Of a stretch of 64,000 nucleotides of DNA, positions 25,448 through 56,135 are shown piece after piece. The translations under genes and the position numbers were made by a program. This DNA is from Candidatus Kerfeldbacteria bacterium (GTDB lineage Bacteria > Patescibacteriota > Patescibacteriia > SBBC01 > CAIJZX01), in NCBI GenBank assembly GCA_903825245.1, contig CAIJZX010000012.1:12059-76058 (forward strand), in the 5' to 3' direction. The first letter of the stretch is position 1. Every line of letters starts with the position of its first letter. The notes beneath the pieces were generated by a model that had not been told where the DNA came from, made no database searches, and saw nothing but the letters and a program-made list of their open reading frames with translations.

Positions 25448-25926
25448 GGCGTAAGTGTTAGATTGATGTCGCGCAATTGAACCGACGTATCAACCGCTGA
25501 AACGGTTACTTTGAATGCCCGCGTCGCGACCGCGAGCGTCGACCAATCAAGGTCCACCTCCGCCGGCTGGCCGGCCGCAACGGTTTTCATCGTTGCGCTC
25601 AATCCGGCTCGCGAAGGAACGGTGACCGTCAAAAATCCGTCAGAAGCAACAGTTGAGATCGACAGTGTCCCGTGAGAAAATTTTCGCGGCACCACCACCA
25701 GAAACGACGTCGATGCGTTCGTCACCATGACATCCTTTCCCATAGTCGGTATTTTCTGCCATCGAAACATAGCTGACGATTGATGAAGATTGTGCCAACG
25801 AAATAGCACTGGACTCGGCCAGAGGAGATTTGCTCTCGCGACAACAACGGCCACAACCAACCATAGTGCCACCGTGAAACCAAACAGAATGGGTGTGCGG
25901 TACTTCATAGCGGCGTGATTTTCCAA
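25444..25926 (-). CDS. Hypothetical membrane-anchored protein
   Basis: N-terminal TM. 4-nt overlap with the downstream ORF. Confidence 0.4.
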   Translation of the reverse strand: MENHAAMKYRTPILFGFTVALWLVVAVVVARANLLWPSPVLFRWHNLHQSSAMFRWQKIPTMGKDVMVTNASTSFLVVVPRKFSHGTLSISTVASDGFLTVTVPSRAGLSATMKTVAAGQPAEVDLDWSTLAVATRAFKVTVSAVDTSVQLRDINLTLTP

Positions 25927-27542
25927 ACCGAATCTTTATCGAACGCTTGTTGTATCGTCACCGTCAGGCCGTAGCTATTCATCACACTCGCATCCGGCGT
26001 ACCGACCGGTTCATAGACATACACCGGGCGCTGTTGCACCAGCGTGCGTAAGGCTTGCCACTCTGCCACATTCGTCGGCAACTGAAAGAGCGCCAATCGA
26101 TCGCCTTGGATATATTTATCGGCGGCTCCGGCGATAACCACACTCCCCGGCTCAGTAACTCGAAGAATATTCTGCCGTGTTATCTGATGAAGTTGATCTG
26201 CAGAAAAACGTGCTTGTAAGCCGGATACCGGGTGTTGCCAAATCGTCCATCCTTGCGAAAACAACATCACCGCGGCCACAACGACCACCAACCATCGCCG
26301 GGTAAATAATCTCAAGGTAATGATAACGCCGGGCACCAGCATGACATACAACGACAACCAGTATCGTGCGTAAGACGCCAGCGCACCGACATCTCCGGAC
26401 GGCGTGGTCGGATACAGATTCCAGCACCCGTAGTAAACCAGCGGAAAAATCGCAATGAGGCTCATGACCGACAACTTGAACGACTTTGACCAGGTCACGT
26501 ATTTCCTTCGAAAATACCGACTAATCGCAATCAGCCCCATCAAGGACCAAGTAGGAAGTAGGAGAATGAAATACCACCAGGTCGACGACAGCCAGTGCCA
26601 GCTCCAACCGCCTGGCGGCGTGAAGAGTGTTTTTGCCGGCGCCGCCACGGAAGCAACCGCATTGACGCTATCGGTAAAAACGCCGCTTGGTGTGTACCCC
26701 GACGATAGGAAAGAACCGTAGATGGCATGATTGGCTAACAGCCACGGCATCTGAACGAACAATGTTACCACGCCAACCACGATTAACTCTCGCCAGAGCT
26801 TCCGCGCAAGCAGAACAATAATAATTGCTGGCGCCGTCCAAAGCACTTCGACTGGGCGAAAGAACAGTGCTAGCCCAAACGCCGCACCGCTGACGACGGC
26901 GAACCAAAACCTCGGGCGTTCGAGTAAACGTAAGAGTGCCCATCCAGCAATCATCAATCCGGCCACGAACGCGCCGTTGTGCATGTACGGCAAGGTGGCA
27001 AATTCGAACAACGCCGGATGCAAAGCGAGGAGAACAACACCGAGTAATGACCACCACCGTCCCCAGAAGCGCCGAAAGACGTCATACATCGCCAACAATG
27101 CGCCCAACATCAAGAGTGGTATCAGAAAACGTTCCGCGCCGAGACCGAAGAGTTTTGCTATCAAAGCGCCAGCTTGAATGAGCCCCAGAAAGCTCCCTGA
27201 GGCCAAATCTTGGCCTACGACAGCGATACTCCGCGGATGCACAAAAGAGACCATAGCGGCCGTCAACCCTTCACTCAAGCGATACGAACCGGTCTGAGCG
27301 AGATGCTGAATGAATAACCGATTCGCCGCTTCATCCGGCGAGCCGACAGTTTGCGTCTTCGTTACGATCCACCCCGTCAGCACGATCCACCCGATAATCA
27401 GCAGACCCGCTGTCAGGCGAAACGCCAACGACGGCCGCGTTAGATCGTGATACGGCGCGGCATACCACCGCTCCTTGCTATTCGGAGGATTCTGGGTCGT
27501 CGTCTCGGTCATAGTAGACAAGCAGTGACAAACCAAGAACAA
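25905..27542 (-). CDS. Polytopic membrane protein, GT-C-like glycosyltransferase candidate
   Basis: More than 10 TM. GSPDEAANRLFIQHLAQTGSY resembles the DE-loop of PMT/ArnT-type GT-C enzymes. Confidence 0.45.
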   Translation of the reverse strand: MFLVCHCLSTMTETTTQNPPNSKERWYAAPYHDLTRPSLAFRLTAGLLIIGWIVLTGWIVTKTQTVGSPDEAANRLFIQHLAQTGSYRLSEGLTAAMVSFVHPRSIAVVGQDLASGSFLGLIQAGALIAKLFGLGAERFLIPLLMLGALLAMYDVFRRFWGRWWSLLGVVLLALHPALFEFATLPYMHNGAFVAGLMIAGWALLRLLERPRFWFAVVSGAAFGLALFFRPVEVLWTAPAIIIVLLARKLWRELIVVGVVTLFVQMPWLLANHAIYGSFLSSGYTPSGVFTDSVNAVASVAAPAKTLFTPPGGWSWHWLSSTWWYFILLLPTWSLMGLIAISRYFRRKYVTWSKSFKLSVMSLIAIFPLVYYGCWNLYPTTPSGDVGALASYARYWLSLYVMLVPGVIITLRLFTRRWLVVVVAAVMLFSQGWTIWQHPVSGLQARFSADQLHQITRQNILRVTEPGSVVIAGAADKYIQGDRLALFQLPTNVAEWQALRTLVQQRPVYVYEPVGTPDASVMNSYGLTVTIQQAFDKDSVWKITPL

Positions 27543-37434: not shown

Positions 37435-38877
37435 ATGCCTTCCCGATTGAATAAAATGCAGATTATCACCAGGAATTTCGCCAGTTTGTCGTTTTCGCAA
37501 TTCATATCCCTCGGACTTGGCGTCTTCATTTCCATTTTTACTATTCGGTATCTGGGGGTTACGAATTATGGCCGCTACTCGTTGGTTATCACAATCGTAG
37601 GACTTTTTGGCTTCGTCGTCGATCTTGGATTATCACAACTCGTGATTCGTGAGGTGAGCAAAAAACGGGAAGATGCCGACAAATACTTTGGAAATTTTTT
37701 GATCGTTCAAACAGCGATCGGCATTGGTATGTATCTACTACTCGTGATCTTCGTCAATGTCCTCCACTATCCGCAGGTTATTCGGTTGGGAGCGTATATC
37801 GTGGGCGGCAGTATGCTCCTCAACGCTTTGGCCCGACCGTTCTATGCGATTCTCACGGCCTTGGAAGAAATGCAAATTGTGGCTTTGGCAAATACCATCG
37901 GCATTCTGCTCAACTTTGTTGGACTATTAGCTGTAATTCATTTTAAAGCGAACTTGAATGCTTTCTTTACCCTCATCCTCGCGTCAAGTCTCGTTTCCAC
38001 ACTTTTTTTCATTCTTTTTTCACGTCGTTTCTTTCGAATTACGGTCCAATTTGATCGAATTTTGATTAAACACCTCCTTCTTCTTACCATACCGTTCGCA
38101 CTACTGATGACATTTAATATCATTTACGGCAAGGTTGACGTATTTCTCATTTCTCGTATTTTGCATAGTGACTCTGCGGTTGGCCTCTATTCATCGGCGT
38201 ATAAATTTATCGACGCCTTGATCATTTTAATGTCGACGATATCCGGCGTCCTGTTCCCGGTCATCGTCAAGAATTTCGCCGATGCGGGCGCGACGAACTT
38301 CATAGCTTCACGGGCAATAAAGTATACCTCGGCGGTTGGGCTTCCAATTGCTTTTGGCGTTTCGCTACTTGGAACGAAGATCATAACAACTGTCCTTGGC
38401 CAAAATTTTCATGACTCGGGTAACATCTTAAAAATCCTCATTTGGATAATCGCGCTTGTCAGCGCATATTCGATTCTCGGATGCGTATTAACTGCGGCCA
38501 ACAAAGTTTCCATGATGGTTCGCTTTAATGCTCTTGGCATCGTCGTCAATGTTGCGGCCAATCTTTTTTTTATCCCACGACTCGGAATAAAAGGTGCGGC
38601 CATAAGCAATATCATTTCCGAAGTCATGATGTTAGCGCTCTACGCGTACTATTCTCGGAACTATTTACAGTACCGCCAATTACGATATGATTTCTTAAAG
38701 ATTGCCGGAGGTTGTGGACTGATGTTTGTGGCTTGGAAATTTCTGCCGTCAATGAATCTGCTTCTCATGATCATTATCCTTGCCCTCGTTTATGGTGCCA
38801 CACTCTTATTGACAAAATTTATCCATAAGAACGAGTATCATTTTATTAAGCAAATTTGGGCCGCTCAACCTAAATAA
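37435..38877 (+). CDS. wzx: Wzx-type oligosaccharide flippase (MOP/polysaccharide biosynthesis protein family)
   Basis: 480 aa, about 12-14 TM, RfbX-like organisation. Start probably at MQIITRN (37456). Confidence 0.75.
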   Translation: MPSRLNKMQIITRNFASLSFSQFISLGLGVFISIFTIRYLGVTNYGRYSLVITIVGLFGFVVDLGLSQLVIREVSKKREDADKYFGNFLIVQTAIGIGMYLLLVIFVNVLHYPQVIRLGAYIVGGSMLLNALARPFYAILTALEEMQIVALANTIGILLNFVGLLAVIHFKANLNAFFTLILASSLVSTLFFILFSRRFFRITVQFDRILIKHLLLLTIPFALLMTFNIIYGKVDVFLISRILHSDSAVGLYSSAYKFIDALIILMSTISGVLFPVIVKNFADAGATNFIASRAIKYTSAVGLPIAFGVSLLGTKIITTVLGQNFHDSGNILKILIWIIALVSAYSILGCVLTAANKVSMMVRFNALGIVVNVAANLFFIPRLGIKGAAISNIISEVMMLALYAYYSRNYLQYRQLRYDFLKIAGGCGLMFVAWKFLPSMNLLLMIIILALVYGATLLLTKFIHKNEYHFIKQIWAAQPK

Positions 38878-43258: not shown

Positions 43259-44198
43259 TCGCACGACTGTCATCGTCGTCAATTGGAACGGACGGAAGCA
43301 TCTGCAAGAATGTTACGATGCGCTTCTGGCGCAAACGATTAAGGATTTTTCGATCATCGTTGTTGACAACGGATCAACGGACGATTCGGTCGCGTATACG
43401 AAACATCACCTGCCGCAGGCAAATGTCATTGAGCTGAGAGAAAATACCGGTTTCGCCAAAGCCAATAATATCGGCATCCAAAAAGCCCTGGAAAATTCAT
43501 TGTGCGACTATATCGTGCTACTCAACAATGACACGGCAATCGAGCCAAACTGGATGAACTCGCTCATCATGACGGCCGATCAGCATCCTGAATACAGCAG
43601 CATCGCCTGTTTGATGGTGTACTATAACGACCCGCAATGCGTTGATTCCGCTGGCCACCACCTGCTACCAACCGGACGAGTCACGAATTGGGGCGCCGGA
43701 ATGGATCGCAAGGATTTTTCGATCCCTGGCATCGTCTTTGGCGCGTGTGCCGGCGCTGGATTATACCGCCGTTCGTTTTTTGAACAGATCGGTTTTTTCG
43801 ATGAATCGCTCTTCGCCTATTATGAGGATGTCGATTTGAATTGGCGGGCCGTGTTACAAGGACTGAAATGCTATTACCAGCCCCAAGCCGTAGTGCGACA
43901 TAAAGGCGCGGGTACATCTCAACGCAACCGACGATTTCAAATCCTATCCTTCCGGAATCGTCTGATCGTCAACACAAAAAATCTGCCGACCGACTTCATT
44001 TTTGCTCATTTCTTCCGTTGGCTTGGATTTGAGTCGTATATGATCGGTATTCTGCTAATCAATGGCAAAATTGCCGCGCTCCTGGCATGGCTGAAACAAT
44101 TTCCACTACGACGGCGCGAACGGCGAACGAATATGAAACGGCGTACAATTACGCTACCAGAACTGCTATCGTACGAGGCGGTTCAGCCAAAAACCTAG
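43251..44198 (+). CDS. Family 2 glycosyltransferase
   Basis: TTVIVVNWNGRKHLQEC...IIVVDNGSTDDS; NTGFAKANN. Start at ATG 43251 (MPNRTT). Confidence 0.85.
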   Translation: MPNRTTVIVVNWNGRKHLQECYDALLAQTIKDFSIIVVDNGSTDDSVAYTKHHLPQANVIELRENTGFAKANNIGIQKALENSLCDYIVLLNNDTAIEPNWMNSLIMTADQHPEYSSIACLMVYYNDPQCVDSAGHHLLPTGRVTNWGAGMDRKDFSIPGIVFGACAGAGLYRRSFFEQIGFFDESLFAYYEDVDLNWRAVLQGLKCYYQPQAVVRHKGAGTSQRNRRFQILSFRNRLIVNTKNLPTDFIFAHFFRWLGFESYMIGILLINGKIAALLAWLKQFPLRRRERRTNMKRRTITLPELLSYEAVQPKT

Positions 44199-45007
44199 TT
44201 CTCGTCTGATAACCTAAATCCAAACTTGGCTTCAAATGCCGATTGGCTCAACCAGGGTAATTTTCGGTAAGTAACCTGACGTCGCGACCACCAAATGAAT
44301 CGTCTCGGCAATACCGTCGCCACGAGCATCGACATCGTTCCGAGAATATCTCGGTATTTCGTGTTGCGCAGATGTTCCCAGGCGCCGGAAAAATTCCAAC
44401 GGCTTCTTAGGGACGAGAGATTACCTCGATCGCCGCGAATACGATGGATTGATAAACCGTCCGGTATGCACCCGATCAATCCCTTGTGACGCAGTGTTTG
44501 CGCTTGGAAATATTCGTCCGGCAACGACCGTTGCGGTTCGTAACGAAAACCCTGATTACGGAAGAGCAACGAGGTATGATCAGGATATCCGTTGATGGAA
44601 TAATTATCGGTCAACATCAAGAGTTTCTCTTGTTCGTGAAAATACCAGGCGCGTGTTCCACAAGCGATATGGTCATGATGGGTCTCTAAAAAATCCACTT
44701 GTTGGCGAATCTTGTCCGGCAGCCACAGATCATCATGATCCTGGATAGCGATATAGTCGGCTTCAACCCGATCGAGCAGGAAATTCAGACCAGCATACGG
44801 CCCCAGGTTGTCCGGTGATTTCAACAATCGAATTTTCGGGTCGGTTATCGACTGGATAGCGTTCACTGTACCGTCTGTCGAGGCGTTATCGAGCACGACG
44901 ATTTCCAGGTTCGAATACGTTTGGGCTGCACAATTGCGCAGCGTCTGAACGATGTATCGTTCGGAATTGTAGGCGACAATGAGAATGGCTACCCGAGGCG
45001 TGGCCAT
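44195..45007 (-). CDS. Family 2 glycosyltransferase (ORF-track N-terminal 179 aa is antisense read-through)
   Basis: MATPRVAILIVAYNSERYIVQTLRNC...VVLDNASTDGT. The ATG at 45007-45005 sits 5 nt after the upstream GT4 stop. The ORF-track extension is an R/S/C-rich antisense of the GT4 gene. Confidence 0.8.
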   Translation of the reverse strand: MATPRVAILIVAYNSERYIVQTLRNCAAQTYSNLEIVVLDNASTDGTVNAIQSITDPKIRLLKSPDNLGPYAGLNFLLDRVEADYIAIQDHDDLWLPDKIRQQVDFLETHHDHIACGTRAWYFHEQEKLLMLTDNYSINGYPDHTSLLFRNQGFRYEPQRSLPDEYFQAQTLRHKGLIGCIPDGLSIHRIRGDRGNLSSLRSRWNFSGAWEHLRNTKYRDILGTMSMLVATVLPRRFIWWSRRQVTYRKLPWLSQSAFEAKFGFRLSDEN

Positions 45008-45011
45008 GAAT

Positions 45012-46139
45012 CTAGATGAATTGATGATAGAATCGCTGAATCTCGACGACACTTTGGGCGAGCGAGAAATGCTGCTCGGCTCGCATTCGTGCCGCCGCCC
45101 CGAATTGAGCACGTTGATCGGCGTCTTGCAGTAACCTGCGTATCGCCCCCCCGAAGACTTTTGGATTCGCCGTATCAACGAGCAAACCTGTTCCCGGCGT
45201 GATGACTTCGCCGTTTTCCGGAGTATCGGTGACGATGATGGCGCGGGCCGTGGCCATCGCCTCGAGCAAGGCAATCGACATGCCTTCGAACATCGACGGC
45301 AAGACAAAAATATCGAGCACCGGCAACATTTGGTACAGGTCCGGCCAGTAACCGACGAACCGCACGCGATCAGCGATGCCGAGGTGTTCCGCTTGCACCT
45401 CAAGCGCCGGCTGGAAAACGCCGCGACCGACGATGATGCTATACGCGTGCGAATTATTTTCAAACGCAATCGGTAAAGCGGCCACCAACCGATCGACGCA
45501 CTTCTCTTGGCGAAGATTGGAAACCGTGCCGACGATGACCGCATCCGGGGGCAATTTCAATTCAGTCAGTACGTGCTGACGACTGGCACTATCGGCGCTG
45601 GGTCGGAATTTCGTCGCATCGACACTGTTGACGATGATCGTGAATTTCTTTTTCGGCAAATGCACATCATCAACAAAATATCGTTGGACTTCTTCTGAAC
45701 AAGCGATATATCCGTCGACCAGCCAATCCGTCCAGCGCATCGCCCGCACGAGCCAGGCATACCGTTGATCGCGATACCGCGCTACCAAGTAGCAGGTAAC
45801 CGCCGGAATGCCGCAAAGTTTCCCCCAGACTCGACCGATCATATCGGCGTGGGCTAAACATGTACTAAGGATTGCCGGACGATACTGGCGTGTTAATTTC
45901 CAAAAACGGTACAAAGCCGCCACGCTCAACAACGAACCAGCATTCAGGACTTCGGTTTTCAGGCCGGCCCGATCAAAATCCTTTCGAATCGGTCCATCGC
46001 CACGGAGCGATATGACGACGTGTTGAAAGTCTGTGGCGCCAGGCATCAGGCGTTCGATCAAGCGTTCGGCGCCGCCGATGCCAAACGCCGTCAGCAAGTG
46101 AAAAATGACCGTCCGTTGCTGTTGTGATTGTTCTGGCAT
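45012..46139 (-). CDS. Family 4 glycosyltransferase
   Basis: FGIGGAERL near the N-terminus and LPSMFEGMSIALLEAMATARAIIVTD near the C-terminus. Confidence 0.85.
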   Translation of the reverse strand: MPEQSQQQRTVIFHLLTAFGIGGAERLIERLMPGATDFQHVVISLRGDGPIRKDFDRAGLKTEVLNAGSLLSVAALYRFWKLTRQYRPAILSTCLAHADMIGRVWGKLCGIPAVTCYLVARYRDQRYAWLVRAMRWTDWLVDGYIACSEEVQRYFVDDVHLPKKKFTIIVNSVDATKFRPSADSASRQHVLTELKLPPDAVIVGTVSNLRQEKCVDRLVAALPIAFENNSHAYSIIVGRGVFQPALEVQAEHLGIADRVRFVGYWPDLYQMLPVLDIFVLPSMFEGMSIALLEAMATARAIIVTDTPENGEVITPGTGLLVDTANPKVFGGAIRRLLQDADQRAQFGAAARMRAEQHFSLAQSVVEIQRFYHQFI

Positions 46140-46157: not shown

Positions 46158-47687
46158 TTACTGCGGAAGAGCTCGAACAAAAAGGATGTTATCGTCGCGA
46201 ATGATTGTTTGGAAATACTGCGGATCGGTAAAATCATTGACTCGCGTATTGGGTATGGCGCTATTGTTCCAAAATGCCATTTGCGAAGGATGCTGCCGCA
46301 GTTGATATAAAGAAATCAAGACGTATACCGGCTGACCGGTCCCCCAGTTTAACGCCGCGGTATTTGCCGATTTTGCATTAGTTGCTGTAAATACAGCCGC
46401 ACCTTCCTGGGCAATAGTATAGTCATGACCGACGATTGAATACCGGGTTTGCAAATAGTTAGCATTGGTCGTAATGATGATGCTCTTTTCAGGAACACGA
46501 ATTGTACTCATTGTATCTAACGTCGCGGCATTGGCCGTATACATATCGTTCGGCATCACATCGGTATGGACAAGATTTAACACCAGGAAACAAAGCAGAA
46601 AGCCCATCTGCAGCACCATTCGCTTGCGAAAGAAATGATACACCACGGTAAAGCCGTTGGCCACGATGAATATGGCGTACAAACTGAACCAGGTATAAAA
46701 CCGCCAAGGAACGAGGTTATATATATTCAGATTGGGAAAAACATAGAGAAAGCAGTAATAGAATGCTGTGATCAATAACAGCATGCCCCACATGACTTTC
46801 AGTGCAACCGGGTCGCGGCGGAACATCTTCACCACGACGGCGACCGCCCCGATGATCAGCAAAACGAAGAAGGACGCATTGAAATCGGTAAAGAGTTGGC
46901 TAAACGGAATGGCCGTGCCCTGAAAGGCGGTGTCGACATTACTGCTGCCGTGCAAAAAATAGAGCACCTGTTGCCGAATAGCTACACTGCCGAAAAGTAC
47001 CACCAAACCAAGAATTACTAACCCGGCGAACATTAACAACCGCGTCCGCCAACGGAACGGGATGATGAATAACACGTATCCAGCAATGGCCGCCGCCGTG
47101 AAAATCAAGAAGTTCAATCCGCTTTGGTGCAGGTAGAAATAAAAGTAGTTGATCAACAACATTGGTGCAATCCACCACGCCTTTTTACTGCGGAATAATC
47201 GCAGGTAACAATACACGAGTGCTAGCCCGAAAGTATACGACATGGTCTCTGGCAAGTAATTCACAGAACGAGGCAATAGCTGCGTATTCAAGGCGTACAG
47301 CAATAACGGCATCAACCGCAGCAAGGTCTGACGCCATAGCATAGCGCTGATCCCGAAAATCAACGCCAAATTGAGCGTCGTCAACATGGCGCCGGAATAC
47401 AGATACACATTGAACAAACTCGCGCCGGTAATTTTTGCTACAATCGCGTTCCAAATGGGAAACACCCAGAGCGACGTCGGCGTCAGGAGATGGCCATACA
47501 TCAACCACTCGCGCGATTGGCGGGCCCAATCAAAGATATCGAATTCCAGCAGCGCCGGATGGGTAATGGGTTGATACCAACGGTACAGACACGTCAGGGC
47601 GATGATGAGGACTACCACGCCGCAGGCAGCTGCCGTCTGCCAGCGTTGAGCGTTACTTTGATTTTTTGTTGTAGAAGACTGACGCAT
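46158..47687 (-). CDS. Polytopic membrane protein (509 aa): GT-C-like transferase or O-antigen polymerase/ligase-like
   Basis: About 13 TM with a C-terminal ~100-aa soluble domain. No clear motif. Confidence 0.45.
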   Translation of the reverse strand: MRQSSTTKNQSNAQRWQTAAACGVVVLIIALTCLYRWYQPITHPALLEFDIFDWARQSREWLMYGHLLTPTSLWVFPIWNAIVAKITGASLFNVYLYSGAMLTTLNLALIFGISAMLWRQTLLRLMPLLLYALNTQLLPRSVNYLPETMSYTFGLALVYCYLRLFRSKKAWWIAPMLLINYFYFYLHQSGLNFLIFTAAAIAGYVLFIIPFRWRTRLLMFAGLVILGLVVLFGSVAIRQQVLYFLHGSSNVDTAFQGTAIPFSQLFTDFNASFFVLLIIGAVAVVVKMFRRDPVALKVMWGMLLLITAFYYCFLYVFPNLNIYNLVPWRFYTWFSLYAIFIVANGFTVVYHFFRKRMVLQMGFLLCFLVLNLVHTDVMPNDMYTANAATLDTMSTIRVPEKSIIITTNANYLQTRYSIVGHDYTIAQEGAAVFTATNAKSANTAALNWGTGQPVYVLISLYQLRQHPSQMAFWNNSAIPNTRVNDFTDPQYFQTIIRDDNILFVRALPQ

Positions 47688-47696
47688 AATAGGTTG

Positions 47697-48812
47697 TTAT
47701 GTGGCCAGCGTTTGTTGCAGTAGGCCGACAAAATTCTCTGCGCTTCGTTGCCATGAAAATGGCGCCATATCAATCGGCGTTGATGAAGTATCCGACAGTA
47801 AGCGGCAAACACTATCGATCAATTGTTGTTTGTCATGGGGTGGAATAACGATCATTTGTGAAGCTGGTATGTGAAGCTGCTCGACTATTTCCTTCGTTCC
47901 GCCGACATCCGTGGCGGCAACTTTACTGCCGCAGGCAATCGCTTCTAAGACCGACGTTGGTAGGCCTTCAGAAAACGACGGATTGATAAATACCTGAGCC
48001 TGTTGATACTGCAACCGCAACTCGGAAACGGTAAGTTTCTGCAAGAACTCTATATTCGTGTTTCTATCCGCCAAGATTTTCAATTGTTGTTCATAATTTC
48101 CCGTGCCGATGATGGTCAATTGCGATTGCGGAAATTTCTTTTGAATGTCAGAGAATGATTGAATAAGTTCTTGTACACCTTTGGCGGCAATGAGTCGTCC
48201 GACAAACAACAAACGCTGTGTTGTTGATTGATGTTGGGAATTATCAGAAAAAAAAGTTGAAGTATCGACACCGTTGTAAACGAGATCAAACGTCTTGCCG
48301 CCAAGCTTGCGCGTAAACTCCCCGGCCGCTCGGGAACTGGCAATAATTCTGTCGGCTGAACTGATAACTAAACGACCGAGTATTTGATCATAGATGCGAC
48401 TAATCAGACGCGTCCACCACGAAGAGAGTTCAACGAATCGCGTACCATGTTCCGTATGCACCAACGGCAAGCCCTGAGTTTTTGCGAACCACCATCCAAA
48501 GAAACTCGTCAGAAAAAAACGGGTTTGGGTGTTGATTAGATCGACATGTTCTCGATGCATGTAGGCGGCCAGTTGAAAATACTGCCGGCCAGGTTTCGGT
48601 ATGGGAAATGTCCCACCGAGAATATTCCAGCACGGCCAACGGAACACAGTCACCCCCCGTAACGTTTCCTGAACCGGAGAGCGTTCTGAATTCGAGGTCA
48701 CCACCGTCACCTGATGTCCCATATGCACGAGACGCGAAGCCAGCTCTTCGGCATAGAGCTCGTAGCCGCCGCGATGGGGTGAGTAGTAAGCGGCAAAAAC
48801 CAACAGGTGCAT
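47697..48812 (-). CDS. Family 4 glycosyltransferase
   Basis: YSPHRGGYELY N-terminus and FINPSFSEGLPTSVLEAIACGSKVAATDVGG at the C-terminus. Confidence 0.85.
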   Translation of the reverse strand: MHLLVFAAYYSPHRGGYELYAEELASRLVHMGHQVTVVTSNSERSPVQETLRGVTVFRWPCWNILGGTFPIPKPGRQYFQLAAYMHREHVDLINTQTRFFLTSFFGWWFAKTQGLPLVHTEHGTRFVELSSWWTRLISRIYDQILGRLVISSADRIIASSRAAGEFTRKLGGKTFDLVYNGVDTSTFFSDNSQHQSTTQRLLFVGRLIAAKGVQELIQSFSDIQKKFPQSQLTIIGTGNYEQQLKILADRNTNIEFLQKLTVSELRLQYQQAQVFINPSFSEGLPTSVLEAIACGSKVAATDVGGTKEIVEQLHIPASQMIVIPPHDKQQLIDSVCRLLSDTSSTPIDMAPFSWQRSAENFVGLLQQTLAT

Positions 48813-48826
48813 GTGACGTTTGCCGA

Positions 48827-49144
48827 TTATTTCAGTGCAATCTTGCGGACTAGATCCTCGAGGCGTTTATCCGTCCGCCGGACGATGACATAATTGCGGA
48901 ATGTCGCTCCGAATAGGATAAGAATACCAACCACCGTTAACAAATCAAATGCTCGCGCAAAATGCAGTTTTTCGAATACGACGTTGATCGATTGCGGAAA
49001 GAAAACGACGAAAGCCATACCTAACCAAATAATCTGCCAGAACGAGAATTCCCAAAAAGAAAATTCACCGCGACGAAAATGCAAGAAAGAGAAGTAGGTC
49101 ATCCATAGCACGAATACGAGAGCGAAAATCTGGATAGCGTTCAT
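48827..49144 (-). CDS. Small 3-TM membrane protein, DUF2304-like partner of a polyprenol-phosphate GT2
   Basis: 105 aa. Translationally coupled (4-nt overlap) downstream of the GT2 at 49141-49818, which is the typical arrangement for DUF2304. Confidence 0.45.
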   Translation of the reverse strand: MNAIQIFALVFVLWMTYFSFLHFRRGEFSFWEFSFWQIIWLGMAFVVFFPQSINVVFEKLHFARAFDLLTVVGILILFGATFRNYVIVRRTDKRLEDLVRKIALK

Positions 49145-49818
49145 AGAAATCTCCAGGCGAGTAAATTAATCATGATGCGAATTCCGTCGATGATGGTCGT
49201 TCCTTTGTATTTATCATGGTAAATCGTGGTAATCGGCACCTGGACGTACGGGATCTTATGTTTTCCGGCGTTGACGATCATTTCTGTTTCCACAGAATAT
49301 CGCGGCGAGGTCCACATAATTTGTTCCGAAGCCGACAACCGTAAAGCACGATAACCGGATTGCGTGTCTTCGACCTGAATGCGATAGAGTACCTGCATGG
49401 CCGCGGTGAGAATGAAATTACCGAAACGTGCAACAAACGGCATCCGGCCATGGAATTTTCTCACCCCGAAAACAATATCCGCCCGGTTCTCCAGGATTGG
49501 TTGTAAAAGTACCGGTATTTCGTTAGGATCGTGTTGTCCGTCAGCATCGATAAACACCGCCACCTCATAATTATGGCTGATGGACCAAAGTACGCCGGTC
49601 TTCATTGCGGCGCCTTTCCCAAGATTTATGATATGACGCAGGATTGTGACCGACGAATTGCTGACTAATTGATCACTAAGAGCTGATTTCGATCCATCGT
49701 CGACGATAACAATATGATCGACTAATGAAGATACTTCGCGAACGACCTGTTGCAATCGCTCATTTTCATTAAATGCTGGCATGATGGCGATAGTCTTCAT
49801 AAAGCACCTTTCGCCCAT
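49141..49818 (-). CDS. GT2 polyprenol-phosphate glycosyltransferase (DPM1/ArnC/GtrB-like)
   Basis: IAIMPAFNENERL...IVIVDDGSKS...NLGKGAAMKTG matches the Dpm1-like signature. Confidence 0.8.
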   Translation of the reverse strand: MGERCFMKTIAIMPAFNENERLQQVVREVSSLVDHIVIVDDGSKSALSDQLVSNSSVTILRHIINLGKGAAMKTGVLWSISHNYEVAVFIDADGQHDPNEIPVLLQPILENRADIVFGVRKFHGRMPFVARFGNFILTAAMQVLYRIQVEDTQSGYRALRLSASEQIMWTSPRYSVETEMIVNAGKHKIPYVQVPITTIYHDKYKGTTIIDGIRIMINLLAWRFL

Positions 49819-50240
49819 TCATACGTTCCCTGTAATCCTTCGTTCAATTCCACTTCCGGTTTCCACTTCAACTGTTTTTTTGCTTCTTTCCACGACAATA
49901 CACTCTTCATCACCTCACCGGCCAACGCCAGTCGATGCTTGATCGCCGCTTTTATACCAGACACCTTAATCATCGCGCTCGCTAAACCATTAACGGATGT
50001 TTGTTTGGCGGTACCAATATTTATTTCACCGGTTACTTTATCATTTTTCATTGCCAGTAAATTAGCCCGTACAACGTCCGCTACGAAAACGAAATCCCGC
50101 GTCTGGCGTCCATGACCGTTTATCATCAAAGACTCGCCACAGAGCAATTTCTGGGCAAATATGGCCACTACACCGGCTTCCCCTTTCGGATCTTGCCGCG
50201 GAACAAGAATTCGTGCCATAGGATTATTGCATACCTCCAA
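49797..50240 (-). pseudogene. N-terminally truncated NAD-dependent epimerase (C-terminal substrate-binding half only)
   Basis: A 147-aa ORF that aligns only with the C-terminal ~140 aa of GalE/UXS-type epimerases (RDFVFVADV...KWKPEV...GL). No Rossmann domain, and there is no room upstream because the UXS-like gene ends at 50224. Confidence 0.45.
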
Positions 50241-51252
50241 ACATCTGCGAATTCACCGTCCGCGAGCCGCGCATATACTCAATCATCCGTTTTAATCCCT
50301 CGTCAAGCGGGACGACCGGAAACCACCCCAGCATTTCCCGCGCTTGGCGAACGCTCGGCGTGGCCTGTTTCGCATCATACGGCAACGGTAATTCCATCCG
50401 GATATCCGGTCGCGCACCAGTTAAGGCAATCACTTGCTCGGCAATATGCCCCACGGTTTGTTCTTCTGGATGACCAATATTCATCGGTCCAATTTCTTTC
50501 GAAGCCATCATCCTCGTTAATCCTTCCAGGGCATCGGTCACATAGCAGTATGTCGACACATCCTCTTTGCTTCCATGAATAGTAATTGGTTGATTCTGAA
50601 TCGCTGCTGAGATAAATTCCGGAATCATTCGGCCGTCATCAAGTCGCATACGTGGACCGTAGGTGTTAAAGAGACGAACAATTTTCGCATCAATACCGAA
50701 CCGTGTACGGTAAGCTACGGTTAACGCTTCCGCAAAGCGTTTCCCTTCCTGGTAGGGACTACGCACACCAATCGGATTAACATACCCGAAGTAATTTTCC
50801 GGAAACGGTGTTTTTTCTACCGGCTCACCGTAAATTGAACCACTCGACACCAACAACAATTTCGCGCTAAACTGTTTTGCCATATCAAGTGCATTTCGCG
50901 TACCATTTGCGTTCGCCAATAACGTCTCGACCGTTAGCCTGGTGTAGTCTTTTGGCGATGATGGCGAAGCGAGGTGATAAATTTCCTGAATACCCTGGAA
51001 TGGTACCTGAAAGGCGCGTAATTCTTTCAGCGTTGATAAATCAATCGTTTCTGAAAAATCATGACGAACGAATTCAAAATTCGGATTCGACAGCAAGTGG
51101 TGAATATTTTCCTCGCTGCCAGTGCTGAAATTATCAATACAAATTACTTTGTGACGTTGGACAAGTAAATCGCATAAATGTGAGCCTAAAAACCCAGCCC
51201 CACCCGTAACCACAATATTCTTTTTGTCGAACGCAGCGGATCTTTTAGCCAT
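50224..51252 (-). CDS. UDP-glucuronate decarboxylase-like SDR (UXS/ArnA-C family)
   Basis: NIVVTGGAGFLGSHLCD...ICIDNFSTG...LASPSSP...GKRFAEAL. The likely start is the ATG at 51252 (MAKRSAAF); the ORF-track start at 51285 is GTG. Confidence 0.75.
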   Translation of the reverse strand: MAKRSAAFDKKNIVVTGGAGFLGSHLCDLLVQRHKVICIDNFSTGSEENIHHLLSNPNFEFVRHDFSETIDLSTLKELRAFQVPFQGIQEIYHLASPSSPKDYTRLTVETLLANANGTRNALDMAKQFSAKLLLVSSGSIYGEPVEKTPFPENYFGYVNPIGVRSPYQEGKRFAEALTVAYRTRFGIDAKIVRLFNTYGPRMRLDDGRMIPEFISAAIQNQPITIHGSKEDVSTYCYVTDALEGLTRMMASKEIGPMNIGHPEEQTVGHIAEQVIALTGARPDIRMELPLPYDAKQATPSVRQAREMLGWFPVVPLDEGLKRMIEYMRGSRTVNSQMFGGMQ

Positions 51253-51284
51253 ATATGAATCTTTTTCATTCCCCGGCTTCGCCA

Positions 51285-51326
51285 CCCCTCCCGACTTCGG
51301 GAGGGGTTGTCCGGTTTCAGCCGGAC
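51285..51326. repeat. GC-rich tandem hairpins in the intergenic region (10-bp perfect stem cccctcccga/tcgggagggg, then 6-bp stem gtccgg/ccggac)
   Basis: Seen directly in the sequence. No U-tract on either strand, so this is not a canonical intrinsic terminator. Confidence 0.4.
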
Positions 51327-51341
51327 GGGGTGGGAAAGTGG

Positions 51342-52046
51342 TTAGAATTTATAATACCCTCGAAAGCGATTGTTAAAAATTTTTAAGAGGTCGAGTAAGG
51401 TTGTCAGGTACGCCGATGTTCGCACGGTACTTCGTTCATCGTTCGCCCATTGCACCGGCACCTCAATAATCGAACGTCCGGCCAGGCGAGCCAGGTACAA
51501 AATTTCAAAATCGTACCCCCATCTGTTTAGTCGTTGCTGTTCAAATAATGGAATCGTACGACGAGAGAACAACTTGAACCCACACTGCGTATCGGCAATA
51601 CCGGGCGCAATGAGAAGTTGAATGAGCCAATTCCCCGCTCGGCCGAGAAATTCCTTCCACCTTGCCTGGTGATGCGTTACTTCCGCGCCGGCAACGCGCC
51701 GAGAACCAAGAACAATATCAGCATCATGACGTCGTGCCCAGAGTTTTTCCATGTCACCGATCGGCGTGGAGAGATCGGCATCGCACAAGTACCGCCACTC
51801 GCCTTCGGCTGCCACCATCCCGGTGCGAACCGCCGCGCCTTTACCCATATTTTTTGGAAATTGAATGAGCCGGATCGGCATCGACGCCTGTCGAACAACG
51901 TCAGCGGTCGTATCGATTGATCCATCATCAACCACAATCACCTCGGTTACCCGACTGTCATCACGAAGATAGTCGGCAATAACTGACAATGTCTTCGGTA
52001 ACCGCTTGGCCTCGTTAAAGGCCGGAATGACAATCGATAAATCCAT
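51342..52046 (-). CDS. GT2 polyprenol-phosphate glycosyltransferase (DPM1/GtrB-like), second copy
   Basis: LSIVIPAFNEAKRL...VIVVDDGSIDTT...NMGKGAAVRTG. Confidence 0.8.
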   Translation of the reverse strand: MDLSIVIPAFNEAKRLPKTLSVIADYLRDDSRVTEVIVVDDGSIDTTADVVRQASMPIRLIQFPKNMGKGAAVRTGMVAAEGEWRYLCDADLSTPIGDMEKLWARRHDADIVLGSRRVAGAEVTHHQARWKEFLGRAGNWLIQLLIAPGIADTQCGFKLFSRRTIPLFEQQRLNRWGYDFEILYLARLAGRSIIEVPVQWANDERSTVRTSAYLTTLLDLLKIFNNRFRGYYKF

Positions 52047-52116
52047 AAGATAACAGAAATACTATACTAAAAAACTGCGGTTCTTGCAAGTCGGCTTTTC
52101 TGTCATTACTGGCATA

Positions 52117-52548
52117 TTATCCGGGTAATCCCTGTGGTGGTCGACGAAAAGCCCAAAATCGAATACCAGCAAAATTCCAAAAAAGCACAATGACCACCGC
52201 CGCCGCCTTCGCGAGAAGTAATTGCAGGCCAAATCGATGCACAAACATCCACAATAAAGCATCGCTGAGAACCAGACCGATAATATTAACGATAAAAAAC
52301 TTCACTGTCTCGGCGCGCCAATTCTTATTATCACTGCTAAACGTCCACCGTCTATTCATCAAGTAACTATTCGTCACCGCAATACTAAATGATAATGTAT
52401 TCGCTAAAATTTCTGGTATATGTAACAGATAATGAAATGCCGATAGCAAAGCAATATCAATACCCGTATTCAACATGCCCACAATACCAAACTTTATAAA
52501 TTGACGAACTATCGGTCGACGAAGTAGTACGGCTATTTTTTGTGCCAT
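52117..52548 (-). CDS. GtrA-family small membrane protein (lipid-linked sugar translocase-like)
   Basis: RQFIKFGIVGMLNTGIDIALLSAF...NRRWTF is the GtrA signature. Start at ATG 52548 (MAQKIAV). Confidence 0.7.
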   Translation of the reverse strand: MAQKIAVLLRRPIVRQFIKFGIVGMLNTGIDIALLSAFHYLLHIPEILANTLSFSIAVTNSYLMNRRWTFSSDNKNWRAETVKFFIVNIIGLVLSDALLWMFVHRFGLQLLLAKAAAVVIVLFWNFAGIRFWAFRRPPQGLPG

Positions 52549-52549
52549 A

Positions 52550-54979
52550 TCAGTTGAGAAGAATTCCGAGTGATTGCATTGTTGTACCAGATACTGTGAG
52601 GCGCTGAAGCAAGGTTCCGGTTGGTGACCACGACCGAATATTTGTAGCACCGTGCTGGAGACTAGTCAGTAACTCCACTTTCCCATCACCGGTCAAATCA
52701 ATGACTTGGAGATCAATAGCGGAGGACGTTGAAAAACCTGATACCTTCAAGGACCGAATTTCGTGACCCGTCCCTGACAATACCAAGATCTTGTGCGTAC
52801 TCGCGCTAATATTCGGCGTGGCCAGTATTTCCGCCGTTCCATCGCCATCAATATCACCGACTGCGATATTCCAACCTTGCGTAAATGTAGCACCACGCGG
52901 CTGGAAACTTGCAAGACGTTGGCGCTGGGTCGAATAGATAGCGATTGACGGACCGGTTACTTCGGACACAATGAGTTCGGCCTGACCATCACCATTCACA
53001 TCACCAACGGCGACATGAACACCACCATGATAATGAGCAAAGGGAAGATTCGTGCCCAATTTTCTTCCGTCCGCCGTATACCAAGCAATGGAGGCGCCCG
53101 ATGAAGCCATCGCCGCCACAATCAACGATGTGCCATCCGTTTGCGGCACCGTTACCGCGTTTATACCACCTGCATACGACAATCCAAAAGGCAGAAACTT
53201 TTTTACTATCCGTCCGCTCGTATCGGCTAAGGATAACCATGAGCCAGCATTCGCTTGACTGAGGAGCACGTAGTTTCGTTGACCAGCTACTAAGACGCCA
53301 CCCATAATATTAGTAATCACAGTCGTCGACGAAAGATTGAGTGTTTTCGTCATAACCAATTTTGGCGATACCAACTGTATTGTTGAGCCGCTGCTATGCA
53401 AGATCGTCGGCGGTTGATAACGATATGCCGTTGTACTAGCGATCGAAACTCGACCCAACACATCGATAGCCGACACTGATAGGGTGTAGTTGCCCGGCGA
53501 TGTAATTGTCGGAACGTATGAACTCCCGGTCTGATTGACCGTCGTTACCACTGTTGTATCTTTGCTCCACGTAATTGCATAGGATATAACTCCCGCATCA
53601 CCCTGCCAGGTGAACTGTGGATGCGTGTATGGTTGATTCCAATTATTTTGCAAGGCAACAGTTGATAGCGTCGAGGAAAAAGTGTGTATCGCGCTGACTG
53701 GCGAAGGTGCAGTCGATTGACAAGCTACGTGCATTGCTAGCGCGGCATCGACCTCACCATAGCCAAATCGTGGGTCCGGACCGACTACGCCTAAATCATC
53801 TGCAGTCGAAGTTAGCACCGCCTTGATAGAGTTTCCGGCAATACCACACGATTCGAGTAGCGCTGCAACGGCGCTGACATGCGCCGCCGCTTGCGAGGTG
53901 CCGACATAAAACATAGCAGAAAAACTGGTTAACGTTTTATCCGTCCAGGTTTGTGCCAAGATGCCGTCTGGTTGGCCATCATGATTCTGATCAACATCCA
54001 TATTACCGCCCGGCGCCACCAAGTCTAACCGACTACCATAATTAGAATACGGCGCCAACGTTTCATCATATTGCACCGCGCCGACACTAATCACTTCCGG
54101 ATAGCTCGCCGGATACGTCACCGTTCCGACACCACTATTGCCGGCGGCACCAATGACAACGACGCCGTGAGCCACGGCATTTTGAATCGCCTGGTGAAAA
54201 ATCGTATCATCATTGTCCCCGCCGAGACTGAGGTTGATAATATTTGCGCCATGAGCAACAGCATAATCAACCGCCGCCGTTAGGGAAACGGTCGTACCAT
54301 CACCGTTCGTGTCTAAAACTTTCAACGGCATAATCGTTACATTACTGGCAATACCTGCGGCGGCGATACCATTGTTCAAACCGGCCGCGATAATATTGGC
54401 GATGTGCGTTCCGTGACCATTGTCATCGGCTGGTCGTGGCGTTGAATTGATAAAATTCCAACCATGAACATCATCAATGTACCCGTCGTGGTCATTATCA
54501 ATGCCGTCACCAGGAATTTCTGCTGTGTTTTTCCAGATCGACGATGAACTCAAATCAGGAACTGACTGTGCGCTCCCCGTTTCGGTCATCGCCACACCCG
54601 TATCAAGTACTGCCACCACAATTTTTGGATCACCGCCGTAGAGCGGTGGCGTTTGATCAATGTCCCACGCCGTCGGTACATGCATGGTTTGCAAATCCCA
54701 CTGAAGCGAATATTGCGGATCATTCGGCACAAACAGCGAATGATAGTGAATATTTAACTGCACCGATTTCCGTTCAGCCGCCGATAAATCTCCAGCCGCC
54801 GCAAGTGAAGAAAGTATGCGAATTCCTTCGGCGCTCGAATTGTTTTGACCAAATTGGTGGAACGATGGCGTTTTTGCGGCCGGATCAGATCGATAGATAT
54901 ATTGCGAAGAAGCAAAAACAACTTGGCTCATGCCTAACCCAGCAATAACTGCGGCTACCAACGACCATCGCCGGCTCAT
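52550..54979 (-). CDS. Secreted S8 subtilisin-like serine peptidase with C-terminal FG-GAP/integrin-alpha-type repeats
   Basis: Signal peptide. Catalytic triad blocks VAVLDTGV (D), HGTHIANIIAAG (H) and GTSQAAAHVSAVAALL (S). C-terminal repeats GDVNGDGQAELIV, GDIDGDGTAEILA and IDLTGDGKVELL. Confidence 0.85.
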   Translation of the reverse strand: MSRRWSLVAAVIAGLGMSQVVFASSQYIYRSDPAAKTPSFHQFGQNNSSAEGIRILSSLAAAGDLSAAERKSVQLNIHYHSLFVPNDPQYSLQWDLQTMHVPTAWDIDQTPPLYGGDPKIVVAVLDTGVAMTETGSAQSVPDLSSSSIWKNTAEIPGDGIDNDHDGYIDDVHGWNFINSTPRPADDNGHGTHIANIIAAGLNNGIAAAGIASNVTIMPLKVLDTNGDGTTVSLTAAVDYAVAHGANIINLSLGGDNDDTIFHQAIQNAVAHGVVVIGAAGNSGVGTVTYPASYPEVISVGAVQYDETLAPYSNYGSRLDLVAPGGNMDVDQNHDGQPDGILAQTWTDKTLTSFSAMFYVGTSQAAAHVSAVAALLESCGIAGNSIKAVLTSTADDLGVVGPDPRFGYGEVDAALAMHVACQSTAPSPVSAIHTFSSTLSTVALQNNWNQPYTHPQFTWQGDAGVISYAITWSKDTTVVTTVNQTGSSYVPTITSPGNYTLSVSAIDVLGRVSIASTTAYRYQPPTILHSSGSTIQLVSPKLVMTKTLNLSSTTVITNIMGGVLVAGQRNYVLLSQANAGSWLSLADTSGRIVKKFLPFGLSYAGGINAVTVPQTDGTSLIVAAMASSGASIAWYTADGRKLGTNLPFAHYHGGVHVAVGDVNGDGQAELIVSEVTGPSIAIYSTQRQRLASFQPRGATFTQGWNIAVGDIDGDGTAEILATPNISASTHKILVLSGTGHEIRSLKVSGFSTSSAIDLQVIDLTGDGKVELLTSLQHGATNIRSWSPTGTLLQRLTVSGTTMQSLGILLN

Positions 54980-56127: not shown

Positions 56128-56135
56128 AATTATAG

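Follow-up and report, generated by a model that had tools for sequence, protein, structure and literature searches.

In Streptococcus pyogenes, the family 2 glycosyltransferase (GT2) GacI co-purifies with GacJ, a 113-aa protein with three transmembrane (TM) helices that lifts the Vmax of GacI from 54 pmol to 18.5 nmol/min/mg (Rush et al., bioRxiv 10.1101/180810). Similarly, the GT2 PpgS is stimulated by the mycobacterial DUF2304 protein Rv3632; GlcNAc linked to undecaprenyl phosphate (GlcNAc-P-Und) is then used by GacL, an enzyme with the C-type glycosyltransferase fold (GT-C), and the protein proposed to flip GlcNAc-P-Und, GacK, belongs to the Wzx family (bioRxiv 10.1101/180810). In three-component teichoic-acid systems, the proposed flippase is GtcA (PMC7389260, PMC8035078). 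A 2026 paper calls the TM domain of dolichyl-phosphate mannose synthase (DPMS) GtrA-like and considers that it may flip dolichyl-phosphate-mannose (Dol-P-Man); it also notes that the view of Rv3789 as a flippase has met with a challenge (PMC12992685). Here, we describe a locus in a 64,000-nt stretch of DNA from a Candidatus Kerfeldbacteria bacterium (contig CAIJZX010000012.1, positions 12,059 to 76,058; the window) that combines elements of both types of system, i.e. a GT2 followed by a DUF2304 gene (module A), a GT2 preceded by a GtrA-family gene (module B) and a GT-C-fold protein of 509 aa. We consider it fairly probable that the two modules are different polyprenol-phosphate sugar synthases belonging to one conserved cell-surface glycosylation locus of the Candidate Phyla Radiation (CPR), the products of which are used by GT-C enzymes outside the membrane.

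Two GT2 modules and a GT-C-fold protein

All genes of the locus, from GtrA through GT2-A, DUF2304 and a family 4 glycosyltransferase (GT4) to the 509-aa protein, are on the minus strand. The order of transcription is S8 subtilase, GtrA, GT2-B, a short-chain dehydrogenase/reductase (SDR) identified below as UDP-xylose synthase (UXS), an epimerase fragment, GT2-A, DUF2304, GT4, the 509-aa protein, a further GT4 and a further GT2; a span of 6.4 kb holds GtrA, GT2-B, GT2-A, DUF2304 and the GT-C. The locus forms the upstream end, in the minus-strand arm, of a convergent two-armed glycan cluster (30571-52650).

GT2-A (49141..49800, minus strand, in an open reading frame that extends to 49818) is a soluble GT2 of the PpgS/GacI/AglJ type with a PF00535 domain (E 4.6e-22), a DAD motif at residue 85 and neither a TM helix nor a QxxRW motif. 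The true start is probably the ATG at 49800 (MKTIAIM) because the resulting 219-aa product is 100% identical to the database protein P0020 and homologues begin at the same position. Its best NCBIfam match, over the full length, is PpgS with 96.6 bits (equivalog cut-off 370), and the AglJ match with 93.5 bits is also below cut-off. The best match in the PDB is the DPMS of P. furiosus (5mlz; E 1.3e-12, chain residues 23-250), followed by ArnC and GtrB sll0501, and the alignment with 5mlz takes in the juxtamembrane interface helices. On the basis of these relatives, GT2-A is probably a polyprenol-phosphate sugar synthase.

The gene downstream of GT2-A (48827..49144, minus strand) encodes a 105-aa protein with three predicted TM helices that matches PF10066 (DUF2304) with 68.8 bits against a cut-off of 25.5 (E 5.8e-19); its ATG overlaps the GT2-A stop codon in an ATGA overlap (CTATGAAC). 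The initial annotation, made from the sequence alone, had proposed precisely such a translationally coupled, DUF2304-like 3-TM gene, and both the family and the coupling are borne out. A role of this protein as a flippase analogue is not, because the sole characterised relatives, GacJ and Rv3632, bind and stimulate their cognate GT2; by analogy with them, we regard the DUF2304 protein as an activating membrane subunit and not as a flippase.

GT2-B (51342..52046, minus strand) is a 234-aa, soluble, monotopic-type GT2 (PF00535, E 1.8e-26) with DAD motifs at 89 and 108, no TM helix and no QxxRW motif. In the PDB it is most similar to DPMS 5mlz (2.4e-13, residues 23-222), then to ArnC (6.6e-12) and GtrB sll0501. 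Its top NCBIfam families are PpgS, PgfS and ArnC, all of them below the equivalog cut-offs (62.3 bits against a cut-off of 370), and its homologues carry the JGI/NCBI name 'dolichyl-phosphate beta-glucosyltransferase'. GT2-B is, thus, probably a polyprenol-phosphate hexose or pentose transferase as judged from these similarities.

The small membrane protein of module B (52117..52548, minus strand, ATG at 52548; 143 aa) belongs to the GtrA family as initially suggested, matching PF04138 (GtrA_DPMS_TM) with 100.4 bits against a cut-off of 26.1 (E 9.9e-29); a crude hydropathy scan gives three segments (three to four hydrophobic). Its gene starts 1 nt past the stop codon of the S8 subtilase gene and ends 70 nt ahead of GT2-B. 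Accordingly, the initial description of a small membrane gene closely following each GT2 is correct for DUF2304 and has to be reversed for GtrA, which lies upstream of its GT2. A weak alignment spanning the full length of the GtrA protein places it on the TM domain of 5mlz (chain residues 255-359, E 0.009), i.e. from the point at which the GT2-A alignment ends (residue 250). Because GT2-B covers residues 23-222 and GtrA residues 255-359, the pair tiles a type-III DPM synthase. In total, these similarities make the GtrA protein a candidate flippase and/or membrane subunit for GT2-B.

Identity between the two GT2s is 28%, and their partners are unrelated. Judging from their closest families, both are predicted to be of the polyprenol-phosphate class while representing different subfamilies (PpgS/AglJ-like versus the 'dolichyl-phosphate beta-glucosyltransferase' group); hence, the locus does not contain a duplicated module as had been supposed. 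The top NCBIfam families of the pair also include a haloarchaeal dolichyl-phosphate hexose transferase, again below the equivalog cut-off. A processive-synthase function (cellulose or chitin type) is ruled out for both enzymes by the lack of QxxRW and TM helices and by their lengths of 219 and 234 aa.

The 509-aa protein (46158..47687, minus strand) has no match in Pfam or NCBIfam or by sequence in the PDB. At the level of a word index, 19 relatives were found in an index of 5.8 billion sequences, the few source-named ones being from Patescibacteria/Parcubacteria, and a profile of the family recovered only 32 representatives among 1.84 billion (1.84e9) proteins/clusters. In the alignment of 19 sequences, F49, D50, F52 and W54 never vary, D53 is conserved in at least 90%, and together they define an FDxFDW motif directly after TM1; Y144-L-P-E147 and P327-WRFYTWF are also invariant. 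An AlphaFold2 (AF2) model built from this alignment (pLDDT 85.7, pTM 0.85) has approximately 11 TM helices and, at the C terminus, an alpha/beta domain. In a Foldseek search of the PDB with this model, the top match was STT3 (6s7o, E 5.5e-9, query TM-score (TMq) 0.63), STT3 and PglB reaching TMq 0.57-0.63, followed by PglB, DPY19, ALG12, AftA and ALG9 and, more weakly, EmbB, AftD and Pmt4; the Foldseek probability was 1.0 for STT3, PglB, DPY19, ALG12, AftA, ALG9, EmbB and AftD. The significant matches (E 0.001 or lower) are exclusively GT-C enzymes. Moreover, P0268, a distant relative within the family (E 3.6e-37 against its profile), has a PMT_2 match above the cut-off (35.6 bits), which provides a sequence-level tie between the family and the GT-C clan. 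We conclude that the protein is a polytopic glycosyltransferase with a GT-C fold outside the described families and a candidate extracytoplasmic transferase. In the model, the acidic motif directly after TM1 is predicted to lie in a loop outside the membrane given the positively charged N terminus and the location of TM1 at about 12-42, in agreement with the catalytic loop expected of a GT-C. At the sequence level, the protein is not a member of the oligosaccharyltransferases (OST): it lacks a PF02516 (STT3) match, and the family alignment contains no WWDYG. A Wzy/WaaL identity is unlikely, as no WaaL, RodA/FtsW or Wzy-type fold was present among the Foldseek matches listed.

Two further proteins had been put forward as GT-C candidates, and they fare differently. 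The first (25905..27542, minus strand, 545 aa), located 3 kb away from the cluster's plus-strand arm, has many hydrophobic segments, a PMT_2 match of 35.2 bits against a cut-off of 26.1 and a PDEA motif after TM1, and is a possible partner for module B. The second (11182..12963, plus strand, 593 aa) has a TDEA motif after TM1, and its PMT_2 match of 17.5 bits is below the same cut-off; a single-sequence AF2 prediction (pLDDT 42) gave an unusable model, and by its sequence features this protein is a probable, though unproven, GT-C. Both genes are more than 20 kb from the GT2 modules, and in none of the related loci did a homologue of either turn up in the 10 kb around GT2-A. Sequence searches of the PDB with the three GT-C candidates and with the 509-aa family profile gave nothing meaningful, and hhalign comparison of this profile with the two other candidates gave probabilities of 13% and 0.1%.

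The gene for the 593-aa protein heads a pilB-pilC-pilM operon: pilB-pilC-pilM-pilN-like genes follow 47 nt downstream (11182-17570, plus strand), and it is divergent from MraY. The same order is present in a second locus (L091, 6001-11766), the GT-C of which is 44% identical. By analogy with TfpW of Pseudomonas, this position suggests a pilus-linked glycosyltransferase also in the window. Type IV pilins encoded in the window had been named as possible glycosylation targets; while genes for pilus assembly are present, a motif scan of the window detected no canonical prepilin, and this proposal is unsupported.

Conserved gene order in CPR and DPANN genomes

A GT2-A profile run against one genome per species picked out 80 loci. 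A block consisting of S8-GtrA-GT2-B-UXS-(epimerase/UDP-glucose dehydrogenase (UGDH))-GT2-A-DUF2304-GT4-...-large polytopic protein is present in nine loci from seven CPR genomes (L003/L006, L005/L007, L008, L009, L018, L024 and L088); only its downstream half is present in L089. Where measured, GT2-A identity across these loci is 43-66%. The order S8-GtrA-GT2-B is found in L006-L009 and L024, whereas L018 has GtrA-GT2-B without an S8 match. Downstream of the GT4, the block varies (AsnB, methyltransferase, GT4) before the polytopic protein of approximately 500-760 aa.

A DUF2304 gene adjoins the GT2-A relative in 41 of the 80 loci, downstream at -36 to +62 nt. A polytopic protein, defined as having at least 350 aa and at least seven TM helices and not being a Wzx, is encoded on the same strand within 3 kb in 33/41 loci with DUF2304 but in only 6/39 without. 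The GT2s without a DUF2304 partner have a median length of 292 aa compared with 222 aa for those with one, lengths of approximately 290-400 aa being found among the former; presumably, these longer enzymes carry a membrane part of their own. The adjacency of GT2-A and DUF2304 together with the recurrence of the whole block argues that the arrangement is not due to chance.

In all six independent loci examined, a member of the 509-aa family is encoded one to four genes downstream of GT2-A/DUF2304/GT4. The GT4 starts at -4 to +4 nt from the DUF2304 stop codon in seven related loci (L003/L006, L005/L007, L008, L018, L088 and L089) and 14 nt past it in the window, while in L009 and L024 the next GT4 is 1-2 kb downstream. 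A GT2 of 266-271 aa directly follows the GT-C-type protein in L003/L006 and L024 and is one or two genes away in L089 and L008. Altogether, the initially proposed combination of a GT2, a small membrane partner and a GT-C stands and is strengthened by this synteny; of the three GT-C candidates, however, only the 509-aa protein is genetically tied to a GT2 module.

In four loci of other CPR genomes, different polytopic proteins of 508-758 aa occupy the position of the 509-aa protein downstream of GT2-A/DUF2304 (L009:14148-16424, L018:17448-18974, L024:13220-14767 and L027:6751-8286). They match neither Pfam nor the 509-aa family profile; acidic motifs are present near the N terminus in several of them (PDEY, VDAAVY and DDHE in L018, L024 and L027), and they possibly represent further undescribed GT-C families.

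The genes between the two GT2s bear on the sugars. The SDR (50224..51285, minus strand) is a UDP-glucuronate decarboxylase, i.e. a UXS (human UXS1, 2b69, E 4.8e-82), and its true start is likely the ATG at 51252. Outside the window, UXS is directly downstream of GT2-B in eight related loci (L006-L009, L018, L024, L003 and L088), and it abuts or overlaps GT2-B in the relatives. The gene ahead of GT2-A in the relatives encodes a GalE-like 4-epimerase, often with UGDH and AsnB close by; a full-length relative matches T. maritima GalE (4zrm) with E 5.7e-90. In the window, only the C-terminal part of this gene is present (49797..50240, minus strand, 147 codons; Pfam Epimerase positions 176-240 only), corresponding to residues 169-305 (137 residues) of the 309-aa epimerase of L008 with 58% identity. 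The reading frame is still open, its stop codon overlaps the GT2-A start at 49800 as ATGA, and the truncated gene (140 aa) is also called on three other metagenome contigs. Because UXS is joined to GT2-B, and the GalE-like epimerase, with or without UGDH, is joined to GT2-A in the relatives, the donors are probably UDP-xylose and a 4-epimerised UDP-sugar. It is reasonable, if unproven, that module B handles xylose and that module A handles a 4-epimerised sugar in the relatives and possibly another sugar in the window.

Among the 80 loci, the closest GT2-A relatives outside the nearest CPR loci are from DPANN archaea (40-48% identity), a level of identity compatible with transfer between the domains. 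In 19 DPANN loci, the GT2-A/DUF2304 orthologues are preceded by STT3/AglB, whose end lies less than 1 kb (in most cases, less than 130 nt) upstream of them. The resulting AglB-GT2-DUF2304 operon is conserved in Woesearchaeota and Nanoarchaeia (L010-L042; e.g. L019:6483-9986 and L012:6879-9971); the AglB/STT3 proteins have approximately 900-1180 aa, and the copy in L019 ends in a C-terminal FKBP domain.

The surrounding cluster and the remainder of the window

The cluster 30571-52650 encodes sugar-nucleotide enzymes, methyltransferases, one Wzx flippase, four further GT2s and three GT4s. The GT4 after DUF2304 (47697..48812, minus strand; Glycos_transf_1 and Glyco_transf_4) is a generic GT4 by NCBIfam and PDB matches. 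Downstream of the 509-aa protein are a second GT4 (45012..46139, minus strand; Glycos_transf_1, stp2-like in NCBIfam with 183.8 bits, below cut-off) and, as the last gene of the minus-strand arm, a GT2 of 271 aa from an internal ATG (44195..45010, minus strand; PF00535, E 4.4e-30) with weak TuaG/EpsE-like matches. The convergent arm (30571-44198) contains the Wzx/MOP-family protein (37435..38877, plus strand; Polysacc_synt, E 4.3e-24), which has weak NCBIfam matches to Wzx_EPS and to an O-glycosylation flippase and is an alternative flippase candidate.

Upstream of GtrA, the S8 subtilase (52550..54979, minus strand; Peptidase_S8, E 3.8e-51) has FG-GAP repeats (FG-GAP_3) and is a speculative acceptor candidate. 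Together with a hypothetical protein of 266 aa and an HtrA-like PDZ protease, it forms a conserved operon (52550-56936, minus strand) that runs into GtrA; the full 266-aa/HtrA-like/S8/GtrA run is present in L006 and L007 and the S8-GtrA pair also in L008, L009 and L024. The two proteases may be substrates or processors of a glycosylated surface component.

The gap between GT2-B and UXS (51286..51341, minus strand) is occupied by a structured element, a double hairpin with an RNA minimum free energy of -44.1 kcal/mol (z -5.07). It is present in a single copy in the window and has no Rfam match; because it lacks a T-run, it is not a canonical terminator, and its possible functions include attenuation and a part in mRNA processing or stability. 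A search of 44000-56500 against Rfam gave no match, and promoter and terminator scans gave no signal clearly above shuffled expectation.

A division and cell-wall (dcw) run (2436-10829, minus strand) encodes MraY, MurD, FtsW, MurG, MurC and MurB, and MurA is encoded at 22583-23896 (minus strand); from these genes, the organism makes peptidoglycan. The only PF00953 protein in the window (9789-10829) was considered as a priming enzyme for the cluster and rejected: it is MraY (205 bits against a cut-off of 192) and lies inside the dcw run. The window also contains a heliorhodopsin gene (61585-62397, minus strand; PF18761, E 2.3e-101).

Proposed mechanism, alternatives and comparison with known systems

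In the model that we favour, GT2-A and the DUF2304 protein would make a polyprenol-monophosphate sugar at the cytoplasmic face of the membrane; by analogy with the GacI/GacJ and PpgS/Rv3632 pairs, DUF2304 would dock GT2-A on the membrane and increase its lipid-phosphate affinity. GT2-B and GtrA would make a second lipid-linked sugar, with GtrA as membrane partner and/or flippase, and the lipid-linked sugars would be flipped by GtrA and/or the cluster's Wzx, to be used by GT-C enzymes on the outer side of the membrane. The genetically linked 509-aa protein is the first candidate for module A; that it uses the polyprenol-phosphate-monosaccharide made by the linked GT2 is suggested by synteny. 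The PMT_2 proteins are candidates for module B. As acceptor, we envisage the glycan or glycoprotein that the flanking GT2/GT4/Wzx genes would produce.

Several features of the locus weigh against this model. In fold, the 509-aa protein matches oligosaccharyltransferases best and not ArnT/PMT, and the GT4 between DUF2304 and the GT-C would be superfluous in a pure three-component module. The cluster encodes a Wzx and seven cytoplasmic glycosyltransferases, while neither a Wzy-like protein nor a priming phosphoglycosyl transferase (PGT) was found in it (30571-52650). The position of the DPANN GT2-A/DUF2304 genes next to AglB fits an initiating role for GT2-A as well. Within module B, GtrA is packed more tightly to the S8 gene than to GT2-B, and the 70-nt gap contains a promoter-like site. 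Concerning the sugars, no UGDH gene was detectable in the window although UXS needs UDP-glucuronate (UDP-GlcA), and the epimerase beside GT2-A is truncated. Finally, all NCBIfam matches of the two GT2s are so far under the equivalog cut-offs that they support the class but neither prove the lipid acceptor nor allow an orthologue or a sugar to be assigned.

Some of these features would be accounted for by a route resembling that of AglJ and AglB, in which GT2-A/DUF2304 attaches the first sugar to a polyprenol monophosphate, the GT4s and GT2s extend it, Wzx flips the product and the 509-aa protein transfers it en bloc, while GT2-B, GtrA and UXS supply a late sugar added outside, as do AglD and AglS. 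The nearly equal scores of GT2-A for AglJ and PpgS (93.5 versus 96.6 bits), the 19 DPANN loci with STT3/AglB, the STT3- and PglB-like fold of the 509-aa protein and the GT4 that follows DUF2304 in the CPR loci (at a distance in L009 and L024) are consistent with this route, as are the lack of a priming PF02397/PF00953 enzyme and of Wzy in the syntenic clusters, all of which contain many cytoplasmic glycosyltransferases, and the Wzx-type flippase gene in the window and in the loci for which the convergent arm was recovered. However, the 509-aa protein has neither an STT3 Pfam match nor a WWDYG-type motif and is approximately 200 aa shorter than PglB, Foldseek ranking of GT-Cs at TM-scores of about 0.5-0.6 is an unreliable guide to donor type, and distant members connect the 509-aa family with PMT_2, the typical enzymes of which use polyprenol-phosphate-monosaccharides. 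Moreover, GacI and PpgS, the two DUF2304-partnered GT2s that have been studied, both make monosaccharide donors for GT-Cs, and priming enzymes are often encoded outside glycan clusters, e.g. GacO, a wecA relative (bioRxiv 10.1101/180810). We regard such a route, the main rival of the favoured model, as rather unlikely. Less likely still is its most specific form, i.e. that CPR run an archaeal-style pathway with monophosphate priming and en bloc transfer by a compact, STT3-fold orphan GT-C to a surface protein, one candidate acceptor being the S8/FG-GAP protease; if true, Bacteria would have their first known case of monophosphate-linked oligosaccharyl transfer, and the GT2/DUF2304 module common to CPR and DPANN AglB operons would point to inter-domain exchange. 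A role of the 509-aa protein as polymerase or ligase (Wzy/WaaL) for a Wzx-exported repeat unit, unrelated to the GT2-A/DUF2304 product, would fit a cluster that has Wzx and no recognisable Wzy and in which (30571-52650) this protein is the sole other polytopic protein; its weak relative P0289 has a sub-threshold EpsG match. We consider this role very improbable, given that the significant fold matches are all GT-C (STT3/DPY19/ALG/AftA type), with no WaaL, RodA/FtsW or Wzy among those listed, that the protein combines the acidic motif after TM1 with the C-terminal alpha/beta domain, and that it is encoded a few genes downstream of GT2-A/DUF2304 in 6/6 independent loci.

A different question is what GtrA does. 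An alternative that we hold to be doubtful, though less so than the others, is that GtrA is not primarily a flippase but the detached membrane domain of GT2-B, i.e. that the two form a split type-III DPM synthase in which GtrA anchors and activates the GT2 in the way that DUF2304 does for GT2-A, and flipping is by Wzx or is intrinsic to the complex. The tiling of GT2-B (23-222) and GtrA (255-359) along the P. furiosus enzyme, the lack of a TM helix in GT2-B, the definition of PF04138 in Pfam as 'GtrA/DPMS transmembrane domain' and the retention of the GtrA-GT2-B adjacency in six related loci argue for it, as do the GtrA-like DPMS TM domain and the challenge to the flippase role of Rv3789 (PMC12992685). 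By contrast, the gap between GtrA and GT2-B ranges from 40 to 813 nt without translational coupling, GtrA is packed on the S8 gene and the direct alignment of GtrA with DPMS is weak (E 0.009); in addition, the roles of anchor and flippase are not exclusive, as the DPMS TM domain may itself flip Dol-P-Man (PMC12992685). Finally, both GT2s could be ordinary cytoplasmic chain-building enzymes with the small membrane genes as chance neighbours, which would agree with NCBIfam matches that are all below the equivalog cut-offs and with the wealth of other GT2 and GT4 genes in the locus. This is the least credible of the alternatives: DUF2304 adjacency extends over 41/80 loci across CPR and DPANN and vanishes where the GT2 gains a C-terminal extension (292 versus 222 aa), GT2-A and DUF2304 share the ATGA overlap, and the best structural relatives are all polyprenol-phosphate enzymes, with an alignment that takes in membrane-interface helices. 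Moreover, there is biochemical precedent in GacI/GacJ and PpgS/Rv3632 (bioRxiv 10.1101/180810).

Literature searches on GT-C or OST enzymes in CPR yielded no relevant work. CPR/Patescibacteria are uncultured, ultra-small and probably epibiotic bacteria whose surface chemistry is almost unknown. Under the favoured model of two lipid-sugar synthase modules serving GT-Cs, the locus would provide a concrete conserved gene set for decorating the CPR envelope or surface proteins outside the membrane: the two modules, an unclassified GT-C family (named members from CPR) with a mutable FDxFDW motif, and a linked S8 protease, all open to heterologous expression.

Among known systems, ArnC/ArnE-F/ArnT and RgtE/RgtA-D, which act in lipid A/core modification with UDP-GlcA-derived sugars, resemble the locus in that a polyprenol-phosphate GT2 is found beside UDP-GlcA-processing enzymes (UXS or an ArnA-like decarboxylase, UGDH and 4-epimerase) and in that a GT-C transfers the sugar outside the membrane, as the GT-C of the window would. 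The SDR of the window is, however, a true UXS and not ArnA, there is no aminotransferase or formyltransferase, and the CPR lineage, as far as we know, differs from the hosts of these systems in lacking an outer membrane and lipid A. AglJ/AglB of Haloferax volcanii and the DPANN operon share with the locus the AglJ-like GT2-A, a GT-C fold closest to STT3 and PglB and, in DPANN, orthologues of GT2-A/DUF2304 directly downstream of AglB/STT3; by contrast, the CPR GT-C lacks the STT3 sequence signature and WWDYG motif, and we know of no evidence for a monophosphate-linked oligosaccharide in bacteria.

The type-III DPMS of P. furiosus (5mlz) is the best solved relative of both GT2s, and GT2-B and GtrA cover its two domains; in the window, two genes in the reverse order encode these domains separately, sequence identity is low, the lipid would be a bacterial polyprenol and the donor is probably not GDP-mannose. 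Module B can also be likened to GtrA/GtrB/GtrV of Shigella phage O-antigen glucosylation and to CsbB/GtcA/YfhO of teichoic-acid modification in Bacillus/Listeria, with which it shares a GtrA-family small membrane protein beside a GT2 of the polyprenol-phosphate class and the presence of GT-Cs in the genome. Enzymes of the GtrB and CsbB type carry their own C-terminal TM helices, whereas GT2-B has none; moreover, no GT-C adjoins GtrA/GT2-B, UXS is joined into the module and GtrA is operonic with the S8 protease.

The nearest systems to module A are GacI/GacJ/GacK/GacL, which add the GlcNAc side chain of the group A carbohydrate in S. pyogenes, and PpgS/Rv3632/Rv3779 of Mycobacterium tuberculosis. 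Like these, module A consists of a short GT2 without TM helices followed by a 3-TM DUF2304 gene of approximately 105-113 aa, with a GT-C a few genes downstream and a Wzx-family protein in the locus, and PpgS is the best-scoring curated family for GT2-A. The differences are that a score of 96.6 bits against a cut-off of 370 means that GT2-A is not an orthologue of PpgS, that a GT4 lies between DUF2304 and the GT-C, that the GT-C family has no Pfam model, that the host is a CPR bacterium and that the neighbouring CPR genes encode UXS, GalE-like epimerase and UGDH instead of HexNAc enzymes. The working principle is, thus, already established, and unless the AglJ-like reading is true, the gain is in breadth and in an enzyme family rather than in mechanism: the GacI/GacJ-type principle of a GT2 with a DUF2304 activator would extend to CPR and also to DPANN AglB operons. 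What is new compared with the described systems is the conserved presence in CPR, the orphan GT-C family, the fixed association with S8/FG-GAP and UXS genes, and the DPANN AglB-GT2-DUF2304 operon.

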